From a virus (taxonomy: Duplodnaviria; Caudoviricetes): a stretch of 37,897 bases of DNA. Shown piece after piece: positions 11,866-36,854 of this stretch. The notes under the pieces are model-generated. The model was not told the origin of the DNA. It saw only the letters and a program-made list of their open reading frames with translations, and ran no database searches. Location of the stretch: the IMG/VR virus record IMGVR_UViG_3300035670_000628, positions 1 through 37,897 of that record; one strand, written 5' to 3'. Both the position numbers and the translations under genes were made by a program. Numbering within the stretch: position 1 is the first letter of the stretch; the number at the start of each line of letters is the position of its first letter.

Positions 11866-12336
11866 TTATTCTGGAACAATCAGTTTTTCGTATGTTTCAA
11901 AAAATTCTTGAGAAGCAATCCTGTATACCTCAGTGTAACTAGGAGATGGAGAAACAATATAATCTCCAGGCTTTAAGGACATTAACCTGCCCCATTTTGC
12001 TACGAATTCGAGTTCTGATCCATAATATCTGCAAGCGATAATTCGGCCTTTTGGTATATATATTGCTCCTTGATCATAATAATAGAAAAATTCATATCTG
12101 CTAAAAAGCATATCACAGGGAACAATATATTCTTCTTGACATTCTGTTTGTAAATTTTTCACTACAAAATCGCCTTCTTTTGCATAATTTGTAGTTTCTA
12201 ACCCATCAGCAGTCCAAGTTTCTATATATTGATTTTTGGTAGCAGGATAAGCATAAATTAAACAAGTTTTATAATACTCTTGTCCATTATCTCTTATTTC
12301 AGGAAAGAAATAAGAGTATGCTTCCTCTTGTGTCAT
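11866..12336 (-). CDS. PGDYG-like protein with internal duplication
   Basis: AKEGDFVV...EEYIV...FSRYE and LKPGDYIV...YRIA...FFETYE halves. Confidence 0.65.
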   Translation of the reverse strand: MTQEEAYSYFFPEIRDNGQEYYKTCLIYAYPATKNQYIETWTADGLETTNYAKEGDFVVKNLQTECQEEYIVPCDMLFSRYEFFYYYDQGAIYIPKGRIIACRYYGSELEFVAKWGRLMSLKPGDYIVSPSPSYTEVYRIASQEFFETYEKLIVPE

Positions 12337-13181
12337 TAGGATTCAAGCAATTGTTCGATATTGAAAAGGTTAGTTCCAACATCTTTTAAATTCATATAAA
12401 TTTCTGTAAGTTTTTTTACTTGTTCTTCTGGAAGATTATTAGGATTTTCAGCAGTATTTACCATACGATAATTTTCATCATAACTGCTTTTGACATCTCC
12501 TATTACAGAAGATATAAAACTTTGCATATCTTCTAATTTTCTAGAAATTTCATCTACATTTAATTCTGATAATTTTTCAACGACTTGTGAATATTGATCA
12601 GACAATGCGCTAGATTCATCACCATATTCTACTTCTGTACCTCTTCTGATATCCAATTCATCACGGGTTATATCGTTTCTCTTAAGCCAATCTAATTGTT
12701 GTCTGGTAGGATTAGTGTAAATTGTTGCATTAGCTCTACCATTGTTTAGATTTATTCTCATTGCACCAGTAAGTTCAGAAAGTACGTGTCTATCAGATCG
12801 GTCTTTTAAAGCTTCTGGATTTACACCTAATCTAGATAATAAATATTTATCAAACATTACGTGAGATCTTAAATTAGGCGTGACAGAACCATCAGGCATT
12901 ACATAAAATGCTTCATAAGGTGTGCTAAAATGTGTGTGGGTTTCTCTTGATCCACTAACCCATGGACTAGATTGATCAAATTCAGACATAATTTTAGAAA
13001 TTTCTGAATTGATTACAGACACCATTTCTTCTTCAGATCCATATTTTTCAATCAATTTTCTTTTGATTGTATCTGCGTCATCAGTTGCTGGATCTATATA
13101 AGATTTAGATTGAAGCTCATTTTGAATAATTTGCTCTGCTTCTTCTTTTGAAATTGCTTGTTTAATGAATGAATACCACAT
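12336..13181 (-). CDS. hypothetical protein with MWY leader
   Basis: MWYSFIKQA start; FYVMPDG...H...GAMRI...PTRQQ motifs. Confidence 0.7.
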   Translation of the reverse strand: MWYSFIKQAISKEEAEQIIQNELQSKSYIDPATDDADTIKRKLIEKYGSEEEMVSVINSEISKIMSEFDQSSPWVSGSRETHTHFSTPYEAFYVMPDGSVTPNLRSHVMFDKYLLSRLGVNPEALKDRSDRHVLSELTGAMRINLNNGRANATIYTNPTRQQLDWLKRNDITRDELDIRRGTEVEYGDESSALSDQYSQVVEKLSELNVDEISRKLEDMQSFISSVIGDVKSSYDENYRMVNTAENPNNLPEEQVKKLTEIYMNLKDVGTNLFNIEQLLES

Positions 13182-25292: not shown

Positions 25293-25573
25293 TCCAACTT
25301 AGCTCAGAGGAAGAGCAATCGGCTGTGGATTGATAGCAGCTTATTAGAGTAATTTAATATAGAAAATTGTCGAAATTCAGTGAAAACTAAGTCGAAAGAT
25401 ATGTCAACACTGAGCCAAGCCCGAAAGGGAAGGTGCAGAGACTATAATGACAACATCCTACTAGGTATTGCTAAGGATGATGGTATAGTCCAGACTACAA
25501 ACAGAATTTCTGGTAGTGAAAACTATAGTAGTAAGTAACCGATCGGTCGCTGGTTCGATCCCAGCAGTTGGAG
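25293..25573 (+). tRNA. trnN: tRNA-Asn(GUU), split; exons 25293-25326 and 25536-25573
   Basis: Joined exons give acceptor TCCAACT/AGTTGGA, anticodon arm ATCGG-CTGTTAA-CCGAT, T arm GCTGG-TTCGATC-CCAGC and discriminator G; TGGTATAAT upstream. Confidence 0.93.
25327..25535 (+). ncRNA. group I intron (209 nt, no ORF) in the tRNA-Asn anticodon
   Basis: P1 exon GCTGT with IGS GCAGC (U.G at splice site); P3 TTGTC/GACAA; P4 TCAGTG/CACTGA; P7 GACTA/TAGTC; P8 CATCCT/AGGATG; terminal G. Confidence 0.92.
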
Positions 25574-25580
25574 GTTATAG

Positions 25581-25614
25581 TCCCCATACTTTTGTATGGG
25601 GATTTTCTTTTTTT
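25581..25614 (+). terminator. intrinsic terminator after tRNA-Asn
   Basis: TCCCCATAC-TTTT-GTATGGGGA plus T tract. Confidence 0.8.
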
Positions 25615-25688
25615 ATATGGTATAATCAAATTTGAAACGAACATTGAATGGTAGTACAATAAAAAATACTACCAAAGGAAATCTTGAT

Positions 25689-26447
25689 ATGAAGAAATGC
25701 AAAAAGTGCGAAAATACCATACCTACCAGAGTTCACTTGGAAGGCAAGTTGATTTTGACTAAAAATCGATTGTATTGTTTTGATTGTTCACCTTTTAAAC
25801 AACATAATTTGAAGCAAACCCAAACAACACCAGAAAAGCCTGTTATGAATACCTGTCGTGTTTGTCAGAAAGAATATCCTGGGGGACATCAAAAGAATAG
25901 AAATATTTGCGGTATATGTCGTACAAACGATTTGAGAAAAAACAAAAAAATAAAATTAGTTGAATATATGGGAGGTAAATGTATTGTTTGCAATTATGAC
26001 AAATGTATTGCAGCATTAAGTTTTCATCATATAGATCCTCTTGAAAAAGAATTTGGTATTTCAAGCAATCTGACTAAACCATTTGAAGTTTTAAAAATAG
26101 AACTTAACAAATGCATTATAGTTTGTTCAAATTGCCACTCTGAAGTACACGCTGAAATGATTGAATTAGATGAGTATGTAGCTCTTCAAGATAAAATCAG
26201 ACCACATTATACTCCAGAAATAATGCCAGTAGTAAATTATGCACCTGTTGTAAAGATATCAAAAAGACCTGACAAAGAAACTTTGGAAAAACTTGTTTGG
26301 GAAATGTCTTGTGTCAAAATAGGTGAGATGTATGGTGTTAGTGATAATGCTGTGAATAAATGGTGCAAATTTTATGGAATACAAAAACCTGGTAGGGGTG
26401 ATTGGGAAAAAATAAAATTTGGAAAGCTAGATAAACCTACAATATAA
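25689..26447 (+). CDS. free-standing HNH homing endonuclease-like protein with zinc fingers and C-terminal HTH
   Basis: CIVC...LSFHHIDP...KCIIVCSNCHSEVH; several CxxC; C-terminal IGEMYGVSDNAVNKW; AAGGA before ATG 25689. Confidence 0.85.
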   Translation: MKKCKKCENTIPTRVHLEGKLILTKNRLYCFDCSPFKQHNLKQTQTTPEKPVMNTCRVCQKEYPGGHQKNRNICGICRTNDLRKNKKIKLVEYMGGKCIVCNYDKCIAALSFHHIDPLEKEFGISSNLTKPFEVLKIELNKCIIVCSNCHSEVHAEMIELDEYVALQDKIRPHYTPEIMPVVNYAPVVKISKRPDKETLEKLVWEMSCVKIGEMYGVSDNAVNKWCKFYGIQKPGRGDWEKIKFGKLDKPTI

Positions 26448-26465
26448 GGTATAATCTAGCTGTAA

Positions 26466-26537
26466 GGCCCGTTCGTCTAGTGGTCAGGATACGAGGTTTT
26501 CATCCTTGAGGCACGGTTTCGACTACCGTACGGGCTA
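26466..26537 (+). tRNA. trnE: tRNA-Glu(UUC)
   Basis: GGCCCGT/ACGGGCT; CGAGG-TTTTCAT-CCTTG; ACGGT-TTCGACT-ACCGT. Confidence 0.88.
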
Positions 26538-26562
26538 TTTTGTGGTATAATGAATTTGTTAT

Positions 26563-26633
26563 TCTCTGGTGGTGTAACGGTAGCACAGAGGTTTTTGGTG
26601 CCTTTAGTTGGAGTTCGAATCTCTACCGGAGAA
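26563..26633 (+). tRNA. trnQ: tRNA-Gln(UUG)
   Basis: TCTCTGG/CCGGAGA; GAGGT-TTTTGGT-GCCTT; TGGAG-TTCGAAT-CTCTA. Confidence 0.88.
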
Positions 26634-26638
26634 CCTTT

Positions 26639-26709
26639 GCTCCATTAGTATAAAGATAGTACGGATCTCTTGTAAAGATTGGGTAGGCGTTTGATTCGTC
26701 TATGGAGCT
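26639..26709 (+). tRNA. trnT: tRNA-Thr(UGU), divergent
   Basis: GCTCCAT/ATGGAGC; GATCT-CTTGTAA-AGATT; AGGCG-TTTGATT-CGTCT. Confidence 0.78.
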
Positions 26710-26756
26710 TCTTTCCCTTTTCTTTGTGATAAAATAATTTTCCAGAAAGTTTTTTT

Positions 26757-27071
26757 ATGTTCACTTTTCAAGATGTTTCAATTATAAATTATGCAAATCG
26801 TTGTAAAGCATATGATGTATATAAAGATGTGCTTGTTTTATTAGATGAAGATTACGATTTTCGAATTTACAATTTTATAGATAGTTTGCGTATTGATTCT
26901 AAAAAATTATGTGCTGTAATGGAAAACGAAGGAAGATTATTTCTTTTATGGCATAATGATATTCCAGAAAAATATACTGAAAACAAAGAAGTTATTGTTA
27001 AGTTCAAACATGATAAAAAATATTTGTATGATCTTTGGCAAATAACAAAATCTGTATCATTGAGCAGCTAA
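26757..27071 (+). CDS. hypothetical protein
   Basis: 104 aa; TGTGATAAAAT upstream. Confidence 0.65.
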   Translation: MFTFQDVSIINYANRCKAYDVYKDVLVLLDEDYDFRIYNFIDSLRIDSKKLCAVMENEGRLFLLWHNDIPEKYTENKEVIVKFKHDKKYLYDLWQITKSVSLSS

Positions 27072-27112
27072 TAAAAATTCAGGTTTACCTTTCCTTGTGA
27101 TATAATAAAGTT

Positions 27113-27268
27113 ATGAACGAAACAATCTTAATATCAATTTTATTTGCTTTAGTGGCAATAATGTTCGTCTTGATATTTATTGTAATTTTTCAGATTAAAA
27201 AAATCTTGAAGTCTTACGATAATAACTTTGAAGCTTTGAATAATAAGACAGCGAAATTGGTGGATTAA
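27113..27268 (+). CDS. 51-aa single-TM protein
   Basis: MNETILISILFALVAIMFVLIFIVIFQIKK...; TGTGATATAAT 6 nt upstream of ATG. Confidence 0.65.
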   Translation: MNETILISILFALVAIMFVLIFIVIFQIKKILKSYDNNFEALNNKTAKLVD

Positions 27269-27406
27269 ATGACTATTACAACAGCAACTTGGATTTCTTC
27301 TGGCATTATTTTTGTTGCCATTATGTCATTTTCTCTTTATTTGAATTATCGATTAGATAAGATGATAAAGATGCTTGACAGTATGATTATCGACCGACCT
27401 GAATAA
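27269..27406 (+). CDS. 45-aa single-TM protein
   Basis: MTITTATWISSGIIFVAIMSFSLYLNYRLDK...; abuts the previous stop and ends at a terminator. Confidence 0.6.
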   Translation: MTITTATWISSGIIFVAIMSFSLYLNYRLDKMIKMLDSMIIDRPE

Positions 27407-27410
27407 TCTT

Positions 27411-27443
27411 CAATCCCATCGAAATCGATGGGATTGTGTTTTT
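27411..27443 (+). terminator. intrinsic terminator
   Basis: CAATCCCATCGA/TCGATGGGATTG plus T-rich tail. Confidence 0.75.
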
Positions 27444-27458
27444 AAGGTAAAATAAATT

Positions 27459-27782
27459 ATGACTGAACGTGAATGGGTTGACAAGATAAAAAAAGAATGT
27501 GTCTTGAATGTTGGCAATTTCGACACTAGATATGCAATTCAGTTAGTTGGGAGAAGTGGTAGCAAGATTGGCATTGTTTCTCTCAATAAGCAATTTATGA
27601 GTGTTGATATAATTGACAAACATAAATATGAGCGTTTTTATGATAAATTTTATTCTAGAAATGATAAAGATAAAAGAGAACCCTTAAGGATTGATTATCA
27701 TATAGAACATAATATTGGCAAAAATGGTTTTAAGGAATTATGGGATTTCTATTATAAGAAAGTGAAGTCTAGAGTAAAATAA
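27459..27782 (+). CDS. hypothetical protein
   Basis: 107 aa; TAAAAT 5 nt upstream of ATG. Confidence 0.65.
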   Translation: MTEREWVDKIKKECVLNVGNFDTRYAIQLVGRSGSKIGIVSLNKQFMSVDIIDKHKYERFYDKFYSRNDKDKREPLRIDYHIEHNIGKNGFKELWDFYYKKVKSRVK

Positions 27783-27797
27783 TTTAGGAGAATTATT

Positions 27798-28061
27798 ATG
27801 GACAGTGCAAGTTGGATTGGACTTATTTTTGGTATTCTTGTGTCAGTTTGGGCTAATAAAAGAGGATACGCTTGGTGGGCCTTTATTTTAGCCAGTCCTA
27901 TTGTTGGTGCTATTGCTTTGGGAATCTTGCCTAATTTATCTGAGCCTGGTAAAGAATTCGACAATAAAGAAGAACTAGTGCGAAAAGGCAATATGACAGG
28001 TCTTTGGATTTCTGGTCTCACTATTGGTTTCTTAATGCTTATTGGAGCAATTAGCAAGTAA
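27798..28061 (+). CDS. small multi-TM membrane protein
   Basis: Three hydrophobic helices; WANKRG..WW...SPIVG...LP; AGGAG SD. Confidence 0.7.
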   Translation: MDSASWIGLIFGILVSVWANKRGYAWWAFILASPIVGAIALGILPNLSEPGKEFDNKEELVRKGNMTGLWISGLTIGFLMLIGAISK

Positions 28062-28666
28062 TGGATCACAAAGAACAACTTATCACTAATGGATATACAA
28101 TTATTGATAATGTATTGCCATTAGATTTAGCCTTATCAATTAATGAGGCTTATAAAAATAATTCTGAGTGGGAAATAATGGATCAGGTTAGACCAGACCA
28201 TTATGGACATGTTTTCAAGAGTGAGAATCCAAATTTACCTCAAGAGGGTGAAATTTATACTGCTAAATTTAAACGTTCTGATTATTTGAGAAATTCTGAG
28301 ATTGTCAAGAAAGCTTTTGATGAATATTTTGTTCCTATGTTGAAAGATTTATCTCCATTTCCAGTAGATGAATTTGACATTAGGTGTTATAAGTTAGATG
28401 CTGGAGATCATTACAGAACTCACTATGATGGTTATGCTGGTAAAATTAACATCATTTATTATGTGAATGATGCTTGGAGATGGGATTGGGGAGGTATTTT
28501 GAATGTATTATCCTCTAATGACCCTGATTATTGTTATCCTATTTTTCCAAAATTTAATAGGGTGGTGTTATTAAACAATCAAAGTTTTTCTGCTCCACAT
28601 TTTGTGAGTTCAGTAGAGAATTATTCAGCTAACCCAAGATTTAGTATAGTATCTTTCAATAAATAA
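28061..28666 (+). CDS. 2OG-Fe(II) oxygenase (prolyl-hydroxylase-like)
   Basis: HYD...YYVN..W..DWGG.L...PKFNRVVL...PHFVS...RFSI. Confidence 0.88.
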   Translation: MDHKEQLITNGYTIIDNVLPLDLALSINEAYKNNSEWEIMDQVRPDHYGHVFKSENPNLPQEGEIYTAKFKRSDYLRNSEIVKKAFDEYFVPMLKDLSPFPVDEFDIRCYKLDAGDHYRTHYDGYAGKINIIYYVNDAWRWDWGGILNVLSSNDPDYCYPIFPKFNRVVLLNNQSFSAPHFVSSVENYSANPRFSIVSFNK

Positions 28667-28694
28667 AAAAGGGGAGAATTTTCTCCCCTTTTTT
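28665..28694. terminator. bidirectional intrinsic terminator
   Basis: A-run, GGGGAGAA-TT-TTCTCCCC, T-run between convergent genes. Confidence 0.85.
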
Positions 28695-29100
28695 AGTCTT
28701 CGAATTGTTGGTCATATCCATCTTCATCAGGTAAAAGAATATTCAAATCTTCGTCTGCTGAAAAATGACAATATGATAAATCTGAATGAGCGATCAATAA
28801 TTTCATAAAAGTTTGATAAAGAGATGGATCTGTGCTATATGGTGTAAAATACTGTAAAACTTTATCATAATTAACAAGAATGAATGGTTTATCATTCAAG
28901 CTAACAATATAAAATCTATTTAAATTTGTTTCAATAAAATGTCCTTGTAAACCAGGGACATTTTTCTTTAACATTTCCCAATCAGCTCCAATATTGTTTT
29001 GAATTTGAAAGATTTTTCTACCAAAATCTTTGAGGTTAAATATATCTTGGACTGGGAATGAGGTTTTTCTTGGTAAATTATATATATCAATTATTTTCAT
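28693..29100 (-). CDS. hypothetical protein
   Basis: Start MKIID at 29100 follows GGTATAAT; the longer track ORF overlaps the divergent gene. Confidence 0.6.
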   Translation of the reverse strand: MKIIDIYNLPRKTSFPVQDIFNLKDFGRKIFQIQNNIGADWEMLKKNVPGLQGHFIETNLNRFYIVSLNDKPFILVNYDKVLQYFTPYSTDPSLYQTFMKLLIAHSDLSYCHFSADEDLNILLPDEDGYDQQFED

Positions 29101-29139
29101 CTTATTTGCATTATACCTGAAGTGTGGTATGCTATCCGT

Positions 29140-29319
29140 ATGAAACACAAGATTACAATTATTGATGAGAATTTTGAGGAGAAGAGCCTTGAAATGACTT
29201 ATGCTCAATTGAAAGAATTGAATCGATGGTTGAATATTTATTTGAACACTGGCAAAACAATTGAATATAAAATTGAAAAATCAAAGAAAAAAATTGAAAA
29301 CGTTAGTGCGCAGATGTAA
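29140..29319 (+). CDS. hypothetical protein
   Basis: MKHKITIID...; TGTGGTATGCT 6 nt upstream of ATG. Confidence 0.6.
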   Translation: MKHKITIIDENFEEKSLEMTYAQLKELNRWLNIYLNTGKTIEYKIEKSKKKIENVSAQM

Positions 29320-29350
29320 AGTTGTGGTATAATAGATATGTAAATGTTTT

Positions 29351-29425
29351 GCACCAGTAACTCAGTCGGATTAGAGTAGCAGGTTTCTACCCTGTTTGTC
29401 GGGGGTTCGAGTCCCTCCTGGTGTA
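29351..29425 (+). tRNA. trnR: tRNA-Arg(UCU)
   Basis: GCACCAG/CTGGTGT; GCAGG-TTTCTAC-CCTGT; A20 identity base; TGTGGTATAAT upstream. Confidence 0.9.
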
Positions 29426-29452
29426 TCAAAGGTTCGAATAAAATGAACCTAG

Positions 29453-29497
29453 AATAACCTTAGTGTGATATAATTCATTTATCACACTGAGGTTATT
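29453..29497 (+). promoter_or_regulatory. 18-bp inverted repeat containing an extended -10 element
   Basis: AATAACCTTAGTGTGATA / TATCACACTGAGGTTATT (one T.G); TGTGATATAAT at 29464-29474. Confidence 0.6.
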
Positions 29498-29502
29498 TTA
29501 TT

Positions 29503-30123
29503 ATGCATCACACAAAAGACAAGGGTGATATTGCCCTTATGAAAACTACTCTAGACCTAACTCTCAAAGGTTATAATATTTTTCTTCCCATTTCAGAACA
29601 TCTTCCATTTGATTTCATAGCCTACAAAGACGGCAAATGTTTTAGAATGCAAGCAAAATATTCTACTGGTGGAAAAGTTAATAATTCAACTTATTCTGGA
29701 AATAAAACCACAAAGCATTACGCCAAAGATGATTTTGATTATTATGCAGTCTATTTACCTGAAATTGACAAATGTATATACCCTTCAATAGATTATGCTG
29801 GGGCTGTTTTCAGATTTACAAAATGTAATTCAGCTACTCCTTTTTATTGGTATGAGGATTTTTTAGAATTCACTGACAATGCTCAAAAGAAAAATTACAG
29901 AGATATGAATTGGACTATAGACATTTTGTCAACTGAAAATATTCTAAATAAACATCTCAAAAGAAGAAAAGTTGAACGACCGCCTTTAGAAGAAATAATT
30001 AAACTTGTTGAAGAAAAAGGGTATTCAGAAACAGGCAGGATGTTTGGTGTAAGTGATAATGCTGTTAGAAAATGGATCAAGTTTGGAAAGCAGTATGAGT
30101 TAAAGGACTCAGAAAGATCATAA
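29503..30123 (+). CDS. free-standing PD-(D/E)XK homing endonuclease-like protein (I-Ssp6803I/PDDEXK_5 type) with C-terminal HTH
   Basis: TKDKGDIA, PISEHLPFDFIA, RMQAKY, Y..DDFDYYAVY; C-terminal TGRMFGVSDNAVRKW. Confidence 0.85.
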   Translation: MHHTKDKGDIALMKTTLDLTLKGYNIFLPISEHLPFDFIAYKDGKCFRMQAKYSTGGKVNNSTYSGNKTTKHYAKDDFDYYAVYLPEIDKCIYPSIDYAGAVFRFTKCNSATPFYWYEDFLEFTDNAQKKNYRDMNWTIDILSTENILNKHLKRRKVERPPLEEIIKLVEEKGYSETGRMFGVSDNAVRKWIKFGKQYELKDSERS

Positions 30124-30148: not shown

Positions 30149-30526
30149 ATGTGGTATCGAATTTCAGCAAAGAAAAAAGTTAGTTTAGTGATTGTGTTTA
30201 ATGGTGAAAAAGTTTTGCTAGGTGAAAAATCTTCTGGCTATGAAATTCCTGGTGGGCACGTTGATTATTTGGAAGATGAGAAAGATTGTGCAAGAAGGGA
30301 ATTGGAAGAAGAGACTAACTTAAAGATATCTAAAATTCATCATTTGCGCACTATGGATATGCCAGACAAGATTGTGAATGTTTATTACACAAAGGATTAT
30401 TCTGGTGATCTTTTAGCTGGTGATGATTTAGTTGGTGTAAGTTGGCATAATGTAAATAATCTTCCAAAAATAAAATTCAATGGTGCAGAATTAATTCAAG
30501 AAGCATATAAAAAAAGCTCCCAATAG
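30149..30526 (+). CDS. Nudix hydrolase with MWY leader
   Basis: PGGHVDYLEDEKDCARRELEEETNL Nudix box. Confidence 0.9.
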   Translation: MWYRISAKKKVSLVIVFNGEKVLLGEKSSGYEIPGGHVDYLEDEKDCARRELEEETNLKISKIHHLRTMDMPDKIVNVYYTKDYSGDLLAGDDLVGVSWHNVNNLPKIKFNGAELIQEAYKKSSQ

Positions 30527-33561: not shown

Positions 33562-34371
33562 ATGAATTTAAGATTTGCAGCAAATATATTCGACGATCTT
33601 GGTGATTTTGATGTGGCTGATTTTATTGATGGATTATTAATAAAACAAGCTCAAATTTCAGATGTTGATGAATATAATATGGCTGTTGATGAATATAATA
33701 AAAAACTTTATCAGCAACAGAAGCCAGCTCCGAAAGCAAATTTAAAATTAACTAAACCTTTATCATTTCCTTTGGGTGTTGAAAAAGTTACTATACCTGC
33801 AAATGTTCCAGCTTCAACTCAAGCTCCAGCCAAAGTTCAAACAAATAAAAAAATTCCTAGAGGTAATTTTGATAAATCTATTAATCTTATGCTGGGTTTA
33901 GAAGGCGGTAAAACTAACGAAGGAACAGATAGAGGTGGAAAAACAAATTACGGCATTACACAATTTACATATAATGCTTGGAATAAAAAACATAAACTTC
34001 CTATGAGGGATGTATTTAAAATTACTCCAGATATAGCTAAACAAATTTACAAAGAAGAATATTGGAATTTGATTAAAGGAGATCAATTGCCAAAGAATGT
34101 CGCTAATGCAATTCTTTCTATGGCTTTAACTGATGGTCCACAAGATTCAATAAAGTTTGTTCAAAAAATGCTTGGTGTTGAGCCTGTTTCTGGAGTTATG
34201 GGTCCTATTACATTGGGAAAAATTTTAGAAAAGACTAAAAATGGCGATGCTGATTTTGCCAGAGCTATTCTTAATAAACAAATAGACAGATACCAAAAAG
34301 ATGAGCAAGCTTCAACATATGGTAAAGGTTGGACAAATAGAGTAGAAAAAGTAAAGGACACTATTTCATAA
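33562..34371 (+). CDS. GH108-family lysozyme with peptidoglycan-binding region and N-terminal leader
   Basis: LEGG...DRGGKTNYGIT; A.QIYKEEYW; VQKMLGV...GVMGPITL; YGKGWTNRV. Confidence 0.88.
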   Translation: MNLRFAANIFDDLGDFDVADFIDGLLIKQAQISDVDEYNMAVDEYNKKLYQQQKPAPKANLKLTKPLSFPLGVEKVTIPANVPASTQAPAKVQTNKKIPRGNFDKSINLMLGLEGGKTNEGTDRGGKTNYGITQFTYNAWNKKHKLPMRDVFKITPDIAKQIYKEEYWNLIKGDQLPKNVANAILSMALTDGPQDSIKFVQKMLGVEPVSGVMGPITLGKILEKTKNGDADFARAILNKQIDRYQKDEQASTYGKGWTNRVEKVKDTIS

Positions 34372-35456
34372 TGTGGTATAAATTAGCACAACAATTAGCT
34401 CTTCCTGGATTAGATGTAGAACAATCTGCGCCAAAAACAAAAGAAAAACCAGAACATAAAGAAAAACCTGAACTTCTAGAAACACAAAAAGAACCTAAAA
34501 GTTTATTCTTTAGTGATTGGGCTAAAGATTATTACGTGCCACAAAATCCTGTATATCACGGAACAACACACGAATTTGATAAGTTTGATATTAATAAAGG
34601 TGTTTCATCTAATGCTTTTGGTCAAGGATTTTATTTCACTAGCGATGAGCAAGATGCCACTCAAAATTACACTGGCTCTGGGCCTGATCAATTAGGTAAA
34701 ATATCAGATCTACAATATCAATTAATGGACGAAAATGATGAGGACGAATATTATTTGTGGAATTTGTATGGTGATGATCCAAGATACAGCCCTTATTTCA
34801 ATGAAGATGGCACTGTAGCAAGTCTTCAATACTTAACAGAACTAATTGCAAAAAATACCGTTTTAGGTTCCAATAAGCCAAGAATAATTCCAGCTCACAT
34901 AAGAATGAAAAATCCAATTCATTTAACTTCTGAAAATGATAAAGAACATCCAGAAAAAACTTTTGTTGATGATACAGATGAATCATTAGAGTTCTTAAAT
35001 GAAAATGATGTGGATGAGTCTGATAACAATTCATACAAGACAGTTATTTCAAAACTATATAATATTTTGATAGATTATATGAATTCAGATGACGCATATC
35101 AACTTTGTGAAGATTTGATTCAATTTACAACTGGTTCTGTTGACGGTGTAGTTTCCTCGGTTATGATGATGGATAATCTCAAAGGAGCTTTAGCAACTTT
35201 TGACATTGACGAACAAACAGATTACAAGGGTGAAATTATTCAAAGATTCTTAAATTCATTAGGATTTGATAGCATTATTATGGATCCTAATCAATTTTTT
35301 AGAATGTACTCTCAAGAGAAACCAATTAAGCATTACATTACTTGGGATCCTGAAAACATAAAACACGCTAGAGAAAATATAGAGTTTGATCCAAGCAATC
35401 CTGTTATCACTGCGAAGAGTGGTAAAATTAATTTATGGAAGAATTCCTTGCTGTAG
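34371..35456 (+). CDS. ADP-ribosyltransferase-like protein (ART-PolyVal type) with MWY leader
   Basis: PVYHGT..EFDKFD...FGQGFYFTS...A..Y; GFDSII; WDPENIK...FDPSNP.I. Confidence 0.75.
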   Translation: MWYKLAQQLALPGLDVEQSAPKTKEKPEHKEKPELLETQKEPKSLFFSDWAKDYYVPQNPVYHGTTHEFDKFDINKGVSSNAFGQGFYFTSDEQDATQNYTGSGPDQLGKISDLQYQLMDENDEDEYYLWNLYGDDPRYSPYFNEDGTVASLQYLTELIAKNTVLGSNKPRIIPAHIRMKNPIHLTSENDKEHPEKTFVDDTDESLEFLNENDVDESDNNSYKTVISKLYNILIDYMNSDDAYQLCEDLIQFTTGSVDGVVSSVMMMDNLKGALATFDIDEQTDYKGEIIQRFLNSLGFDSIIMDPNQFFRMYSQEKPIKHYITWDPENIKHARENIEFDPSNPVITAKSGKINLWKNSLL

Positions 35457-36458: not shown

Positions 36459-36854
36459 ATGTGGTATAGATTTGCTCAAGATATGTCTGTACCTTATTAC
36501 AGATACCCTGAGCAATCAAGAAATACATACAAAAATCACATCCCCTTGCAAGAAGATTTTCAAGGTATGTCTCAACCTGATATTGACAGAAAATTTTCTC
36601 AAGATGCAAAAATATATGTGCAGCAAATGGTAAAAGATCCATTGGTTCAAAATAATACTCAAGCGAAAATTATGTTTGACACAATAATTAATGATCCCAG
36701 CTATAAGATAGAAAGATCATCTTTTGTTGAATTAATAAATGCGTACAGAAGAATTTACATACTAATATTTGACAATTATAAAAATACAAAAAAGTTATCT
36801 GAATTAAAACCGGATGCAGAACGAATTTTACTTAGAATTTTAAGCAAAATGTAG
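36459..36854 (+). CDS. hypothetical protein with MWY leader
   Basis: MWYRFAQ start; abuts the previous stop. Confidence 0.75.
   Translation: MWYRFAQDMSVPYYRYPEQSRNTYKNHIPLQEDFQGMSQPDIDRKFSQDAKIYVQQMVKDPLVQNNTQAKIMFDTIINDPSYKIERSSFVELINAYRRIYILIFDNYKNTKKLSELKPDAERILLRILSKM

Follow-up and report, generated by a model that had tools for sequence, protein, structure and literature searches.

Unrelated phage nucleases beside tRNA genes share a helix-turn-helix domain and are probable SegB-like homing enzymes

The virus record IMGVR_UViG_3300035670_000628 (Duplodnaviria; Caudoviricetes), analysed over its whole 37,897 nucleotides (nt) and called the window below, encodes two free-standing nucleases of different families. 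Both genes stand just 3′ of tRNA genes and both proteins end in a common helix-turn-helix (HTH) domain. One is an HNH enzyme and the other a PD-(D/E)XK enzyme. On balance we favour the account that both are homing nucleases resembling SegB of phage T4, with the HTH likely binding a T-loop motif and likely repressing the nuclease's own promoter. That they are homing nucleases of tRNA genes is, taken by itself, highly probable.

The two proteins align over 37 residues with 20 identical (54%, E 3e-9) and over no other significant stretch. A preliminary description of this DNA had placed one C-terminal HTH on two unrelated nucleases and noted 25 identical nt out of 27 between 26327-26353 and 30039-30065; both statements hold. 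The DNA match covers the most conserved motif of the HTH. It is not a sign of recent exchange because 47 of 2016 pairs of cluster representatives (33 of the 741 low-GC pairs) reach 25/27 or better, and another HNH gene (L058) matches the PD-(D/E)XK segment at 26/27. Recent DNA exchange between the two window genes was thus rejected, the identity being ordinary for the motif and the two HTHs falling in different, weakly supported parts of the HTH tree.

Judged by its profile match and conserved His and CxxCH residues, the first protein is an HNH (His-Me finger) nuclease. It matches PHROG 2255 HNH (E 8e-35), had no match in the Pfam search of the window proteins, and keeps H114, C146, C149 and H150 invariant across 35 sequences. 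In its structure model the nuclease spans about residues 84-177 and the HTH about 190-245, joined by a linker of low confidence. The modelled residues 84-177 resemble Cap5 (Z 6.9, root-mean-square deviation 3.7, 79 aligned), IscB (Z 5.4) and McrA (Z 4.9), which is the right kind of fold at middling Z. The second protein, by its profile score, is a member of the PF11645 or I-Ssp6803I family (67.2 bits against a cut-off of 26.1; PDB 2OST, E 6e-4), with the PD...QxK residues D37, Q50 and K52 invariant in eight relatives.

The shared block is, as modelled, a three-helix HTH fold (predicted local distance difference test score 84; helices 10-19, 22-29 and 33-43 and a short fourth), and its best structural matches are HTH domains with Z up to 5.6. 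Structure and PDB searches found no close solved relative, and Pfam, NCBIfam, PDB sequence, Foldseek and ESM Atlas found no named family. The nearest ESM Atlas clusters are unnamed proteins of 58-59 residues at 0.90-0.91. Many HTH relatives match RWP-RK (PF02042) weakly or via repeated copies, and neither window protein does. The literature searched, with subscription journals thinly covered, held no published account of the shared HTH, of the leader mimic described below or of the split phiKZ tRNA. The original NUMOD paper could cover a similar motif.

The domain is widespread. A profile of seven HTH sequences retrieved 13,692 representatives at E ≤1e-3 and 2,542 at 1e-10, among them non-nuclease and multi-HTH proteins. 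In 123 of the best 150 representatives (the 27 omitted being mostly short), Pfam recognised fusions to HNH, HNH_3, PDDEXK_5 (6), GIY-YIG (1), LAGLIDADG_3 (2), DUF559/RAP (2) and tyrosine integrase (1); the LAGLIDADG fusions come from protein matches alone and none is among the genomic loci. The nuclease classes, assigned to the locus proteins approximately by our own motif patterns, are scattered over the HTH tree, with 9 changes in 9 rows for Vsr-like, 5 in 6 for PD-(D/E)XK and 15 in 16 for HNH_3 proteins. This is a quick tree of 128 HTHs and 56 columns with 6 of 125 branches well supported. The swappable module suggested earlier is supported, in that the HTH is on several nuclease folds. Other carriers of the HTH are a tyrosine integrase, a recombinase-like protein and a bacterial and plasmid family of 360-510 residues with RWP-RK-like matches (P0128, L465, L461, L462, L468-L472).

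From each scan only the top 80 genomic loci were kept, so that the sampling was not random. Among the 354 loci were 376 HTH open reading frames (ORFs), which code for 250 distinct proteins; these form 109 clusters at 50% identity, 104 of which had enough flank to be scored (5 dropped). A tRNA gene lies within 250 nt in 93 of these 104 clusters and within 1 kb in 100. It is upstream in 72, on the same strand in 66 of the 72, and the tRNAs are of many isotypes and in both orientations. In all five cultured phages opened out of 44 records, a tRNA is directly upstream: phiKZ gp296 (Asn), Munch (Leu), the phiSHEF13 GIY-YIG gene (Pro), SOVA965 (Met) and Izhevsk (Ile).

The window genes follow the same pattern. 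The HNH start codon (25689) is 115 nt 3′ of tRNA-Asn(GTT) and its stop codon is 18 nt 5′ of tRNA-Glu, while the PD-(D/E)XK start codon is 75 nt 3′ of tRNA-Arg(TCT). As described before, both genes come after tRNA genes and the I-Ssp6803I-type copy is outside any intron; tRNA-Arg is whole and neither gene is within an intron. Nuclease ORFs often end inside the next tRNA gene, after overlapping it by about 10 nt, and HTH-less HNH genes do likewise. At two loci (L029 and L062, upstream of 2713 and 2213) an HTH-HNH gene stands 3′ of an apparent 3′ end of a transfer-messenger RNA with a T-loop, as a candidate only. Three HNH proteins with an altered recognition helix (VSW or VSDTT; L386, L390, L402) adjoin tRNAs with a CTA anticodon, possibly in recoded phages.

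The leaders of the HTH genes are enriched in T-loop sequence. In the 150 nt before the start codon, with tRNAs masked, GTTCG is the top 5-mer and GTTCGA and GGTTCG are the top 6-mers. GTTCGA is in 34 of the 101 HTH-gene leaders against 34 of the 453 comparison leaders, and shuffles gave a mean of 2.9 and a maximum of 8. With T-arm hits removed, RGTTCG is within 100 nt of the start in 34/101 HTH genes against 1/32 HTH-less HNH genes (p 4e-4), 4/99 other tRNA-side ORFs and 19/453 of all other ORFs. For the shared tRNA-gene feature proposed earlier as the target of the HTH, the T-loop word GTTCGA is the candidate.

The comparison also holds among close relatives. GTTCG or CGAAC is in 10 of 14 distinct leaders of clade A, to which the window HNH belongs, and in 11 of 11 of the sister clade B, 3′ of tRNA-Glu. 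An HTH-less sister of 165-167 residues at the same Asn-Glu site has it in none of four leaders, in a same-locus comparison drawn from five sister loci. The RGTTCG sites are 24 forward and 17 reverse, and 30 of the 34 motif-bearing leaders have a single orientation (17 forward, 13 reverse). Such orientation independence would suit a site in duplex DNA. Two inverted copies are in the leaders of phiKZ and Munch, one copy is in SOVA965 and none in phiSHEF13 and Izhevsk.

Both window leaders can form a hairpin, that of the HNH gene being weaker than that of the PD-(D/E)XK gene. The latter fold is lost if the transcript is started near the −10 box (29466; z 0.4). This pattern matches that described for T4 endonucleases in the accessible text of PMC2988022.

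From these observations we infer binding, cutting, homing and repression as follows. The shared HTH likely binds the RGTTCGA of the T-loop in tRNA genes and would thereby bring the nuclease to which it is fused onto the tRNA gene of a rival phage for cutting; when the break is repaired with the carrier genome as template, the nuclease gene would be copied in. Which tRNA type is attacked, and at which point, would be decided by the nuclease domain and not by the HTH. The likely cut by the HNH enzyme is in the Asn anticodon, 5′ of the T-loop by about 19 bp, and the carrier's own Asn copy would be protected by an ORF-less intron or a changed anticodon stem in collaborative homing. A T-loop motif copy beside each gene's own promoter would let the HTH repress that gene, and transcripts reading through from the tRNA would be kept from translation by the leader hairpin.

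The Asn intron goes with the HNH gene. A nuclease-independent anchor pattern collected 20 viral and 52 metagenome stretches, with 47 distinct loci scorable. Clade A is beside an intron-bearing Asn in 14, beside an intronless Asn with an AAA stem in 3 and beside a plain Asn in 0, and the other loci are 5, 3 and 22, respectively. The intron is thus in 14/17 HNH carriers and 5/30 others, all from related and not independent genomes. Near-identical introns occur in different Asn alleles of the relatives, so the ORF-less intron moves. The free-standing nuclease genes are optional at the same tRNA site among related phages and patchy among near-identical ones.

A split tRNA is seen in phiKZ (L110, NC_004629.1, ~268880-269690), where about 774 bp with a replacement tRNA-Asn and gp296, an HNH-HTH protein, divides the resident tRNA-Asn at the anticodon. 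The replacement has an unusually long variable region, and both resident halves remain, unannotated in the record. The resident tRNA is intact in Churi and PaSz, and both halves are kept in 124.01 and PA1C. In the accessible parts of the literature gp296 is listed as an HNH nuclease (PMC12571901) and given as absent from Churi (PMC11849849), and Williams 2020 maps tRNA introns. Protection of the phiKZ remnant by a T-loop change (GTTCTA) was rejected, with the empty PaSz allele having the same base and the carriers 124.01 and PA1C keeping GTTCGA. More candidate split tRNAs surround HTH-nuclease cassettes at L347, L307, L287 and L303, two of them antisense with a replacement tRNA.

The PD-(D/E)XK gene is present 3′ of tRNA-Arg in 2 of 17 distinct Arg loci, and among the relatives compared the sequence changes right at the tRNA-Arg 3′ end. 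Of its 63 distinct relatives, 60 follow a called tRNA-Arg(TCT), mostly uninterrupted. By analogy with SegB, a cut at the tRNA 3′ end is possible. Two other ideas were discarded. Anticodon protection, with the plain CTTCTAA loop in 0/3 carriers against 9/15 non-carriers, had too few loci and was contradicted by the cyanobacterial carriers. Travel of each nuclease with its own tRNA allele failed as the alleles assort freely, and the window Arg allele is without the nuclease in L007, L011, L023, L027 and L049.

Several results weigh against T-loop reading and anticodon protection. RGTTCG is missing within 100 nt in 67 of the 101 leaders, and the looser RGTTCR (40/101 vs 7/32 in HTH-less HNHs, p 0.09) is not significant. 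The HTH-bearing genes from an independent HNH scan have RGTTCG in 4/23, and the site in the window HNH's own leader is the 5-base core only. At least 54 of the 63 distinct PD-(D/E)XK relatives follow an uninterrupted Arg loop, with which anticodon protection fails for this clade. The p of 4e-7 for the Asn association is overstated, the AAA-stem class having been set up post hoc and the phages that supply the loci being related. A tRNA split around the gene is found in just 5/109 representatives.

The tRNA linkage itself is not the HTH's alone. In one HNH subfamily, searched by a catalytic-domain query built from tRNA-side enzymes, 32/38 HTH-less clusters are tRNA-adjacent against 18/21 HTH-bearing ones, so the HTH is not required for tRNA adjacency. 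The PD-(D/E)XK control has two HTH-less clusters only, neither tRNA-adjacent (0/2). The bacterial and plasmid branch and one recombinase-like fusion have no tRNA nearby in 8 of 8 loci; the proteins of the branch are without a recognised nuclease domain and nine of its rows form a supported clade in the HTH tree. Therefore, the tRNA link holds for the nuclease-fused copies only. The tabulation of fused domains and tRNA adjacency proposed earlier accordingly came out well for the nuclease-fused copies (93/104) and badly for this branch, and the notion that the HTH alone defines a tRNA-linked family is not supported as stated.

These findings lend some weight to another account, in which the enzymes are tRNA-locus homing nucleases with the target set by the nuclease and zinc-finger parts, and the HTH is an accessory that adds affinity or autorepression and spread among genes already gathered in tRNA clusters. 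In its favour are the equal tRNA adjacency of the HTH-less HNHs, the HTH-less sister at the Asn-Glu site, the HTH away from tRNAs in bacteria, and the constancy of the Arg(TCT) site in the PD-(D/E)XK clade, which points to specificity in the nuclease domain. However, it leaves unexplained why the T-loop motif is enriched in the HTH-gene leaders and nearly absent from the HTH-less leaders, and why the HTH is linked to many tRNA types across folds. We consider it rather unlikely.

The nucleases might instead be kept as phage tools that cut competitor or host tRNA genes, or that multiply the tRNA array of their own phage as a counter to defences which cleave tRNAs; this can coexist with T-loop-guided homing. 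As far as the accessible texts go, amplification of the T6 tRNA array in response to Septu is driven by SegB (PMC13096335), and phiPA3 has an intron HNH that interferes with another phage in the same cell (PMC11620839); the motif is also common to tRNA genes. However, the patchy presence in near-identical phages and the insertion within a tRNA gene fit selfish spread, and the phiKZ 296 knock-down is reported as weak and in one of two read-outs only (PMC12571901). This is improbable.

Least of all do we expect the leader motif to be an RNA element or a relic (a hairpin arm, pairing with the upstream T-loop in the precursor, or duplicated T-arm debris) and the HTH to bind, for example, the TATAAT promoter: two inverted copies do form a stem over the ribosome-binding site in the cyanobacterial leaders and in some of the phage ones, and orphan T-arms follow 16 of the 109 genes, but most motif-bearing leaders have a single orientation, the clade B motif lies between the hairpin arms and flips orientation among relatives, and T-arm-like matches were filtered out.

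We thus return to SegB-like homing with a T-loop-binding HTH. Its generalisation is more tentative: the HTH of about 50 residues may be a portable T-loop reader that was repeatedly picked up by homing nucleases of five folds, making each a tRNA-gene invader with autorepression. Phage tRNA clusters abound in nuclease genes that lack an explanation, and SegB was the only one found with a mapped target. If the reading is true, a binding module across nuclease folds gives a rule for recognising tRNA-gene invaders and links them to the spread of ORF-less tRNA introns and the turnover of tRNA alleles. It would also account for how replacement tRNAs and group I introns without an ORF travel among phage tRNA clusters, with phiKZ gp296 as one of the cases, and make the HTH a compact targeting domain for the GTTCGA element.

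The features of both loci are collected in Table 1. The window also encodes an endolysin, a methylase, a RusA-like protein and an exonuclease. As its relatives are on contigs as long as 358 kb, it is a fragment of a large phage. Four tRNAs were found by standard ARAGORN, and tRNA-Asn(GTT), 25293-25573, was added only by the intron search. Its intron was missed by whole-window Rfam at the gathering threshold and found by a local E-value search. A similar MWY.. N-terminal peptide begins unrelated window proteins (12336-13181, 30149-30526, 34371-35456, 36459-36854), and that of 34371-35456 has an ART-PolyVal match.

Table 1. Features of the HNH and PD-(D/E)XK nuclease loci in the window
Feature	Position	Strand	Evidence
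tRNA-Asn(GTT) 5′ exon	25293..25326	+	ARAGORN with intron search
209-nt ORF-less group I intron within Asn anticodon	25327..25535	+	ARAGORN intron search; Rfam RF00028, 80.9 bits, E 8e-21
tRNA-Asn 3′ exon with T-loop GGTTCGAT	25536..25573	+	ARAGORN intron search
Terminator-like hairpin 3′ of tRNA-Asn, in relatives with and without HNH	25582..25601	+	Sequence, locus comparison
TATAAT, likely −10 box of HNH gene	25621..25626	+	Sequence; kept in 8/9 aligned leaders
CGAAC (minus-strand GTTCG), candidate operator just 3′ of −10 box	25638..25642	-	10/14 distinct clade leaders; 0/4 HTH-less sister leaders
Leader hairpin 5′ of ribosome-binding site, HNH gene	25649..25674	+	z −2.65 for 25630-25700, weaker with longer window
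Free-standing HNH nuclease gene, 252 residues: CxxC zinc motifs, HNH domain, linker, HTH	25689..26447	+	Profile match, conserved residues, structure model
C-terminal HTH of HNH, PGRGDW tail	26262..26408	+	DNA and protein alignment, model
tRNA-Glu(TTC), tRNA-Gln(TTG), tRNA-Thr(TGT)	26466..26709	+	tRNA search
tRNA-Arg(TCT), intronless, anticodon loop TTTCTAC	29350..29427	+	tRNA search
Two inverted T-loop-like sites, AGGTTCGAAT and TGAACCT, candidate operator over putative −35 region	29430..29450	.	Sequence; also L001, L499
Long hairpin with TATAAT (29469-29474), hides GAGG ribosome-binding site (29489-29492)	29451..29499	+	−33.2 kcal/mol, z −8.8, 0/200 shuffles
Free-standing PD-(D/E)XK nuclease gene, 206 residues: I-Ssp6803I-like domain and HTH	29503..30123	+	Pfam, PDB, residue conservation
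C-terminal HTH of PD-(D/E)XK, tail absent	29974..30084	+	DNA and protein alignment

The tRNA genes vary by themselves. Closely related phages (L002-L028, L473-L542) have several very different alleles in each of the Asn, Glu, Gln and Arg slots, assorting independently. Some alleles, noted at 26563-26635 and 26466-26537 of the window and in the relatives L002, L003 and L014, have non-standard T-loops, such as the window Glu GGTTTCGAC and the relatives' Gln TGATCGTAC, and could evade a reader of the T-loop. In tRNA-Arg(TCT) of relatives there is a second intron-like insert, ORF-less and 229-231 nt long (L001 2620-2923; L008, L476, L485, L499, L530); it is absent from the window.

I-Ssp6803I, a PDB chain of 151 residues encoded in a tRNA-fMet intron, is of the same catalytic family as the PD-(D/E)XK protein. 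In contrast, the window protein is free-standing, has the added HTH and follows tRNA-Arg(TCT). I-Ssp6803I is described as a tetramer on a 23-bp pseudo-palindrome in the accessible text of PMC3384342.

Collaborative homing has been described, in the texts seen, for F-CphI and the S-PM2 psbA intron (PMC6083498; also PMC10448857). The HNH locus is alike in that its free-standing nuclease gene has an ORF-less group I intron next to it, by which the carrier's target would be shielded. It differs in that the target would be a tRNA gene, the enzyme is an HNH with an HTH, and co-occurrence is what suggests the protection. I-TevI, by the accessible account, has a target-like operator over its own promoter and a hairpin hiding the ribosome-binding site (PMC2988022). 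Its autorepression was shown for an intron-encoded GIY-YIG enzyme, whereas that proposed here would act on free-standing genes with an operator common to several families.

HNH genes beside tRNA arrays were proposed to be SegB-like in Anabaena (all8564, PMC8421152) and in mycobacteriophages (PMC6409571); the accessible parts of these papers mention neither a DNA-binding domain in common, nor a target motif, nor a module found across families. One free-standing phage nuclease that targets the T-loop is known already, namely T4 SegB, which lacks this HTH. Its recognition sequence is the T-loop motif GGTTCRANTCC, and it homes together with its tRNA cluster (PMC2330249, as accessible); SegB relatives are reported as tRNA-linked (PMC13096335, likewise). 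The window nucleases share with SegB the free-standing position in a phage tRNA cluster, the optional presence among relatives, the T-loop motif (recognised by SegB, enriched here in the leaders) and the leader hairpin. They likely work like SegB and are not SegB, having HNH and PD-(D/E)XK domains in place of its GIY-YIG with NUMOD3; SegB scores −0.1 bits against the HTH profile. Unlike in SegB, a single HTH is shared here by HNH, PD-(D/E)XK, Vsr-like, GIY-YIG and LAGLIDADG domains, and a T-loop mimic is present in the leaders.

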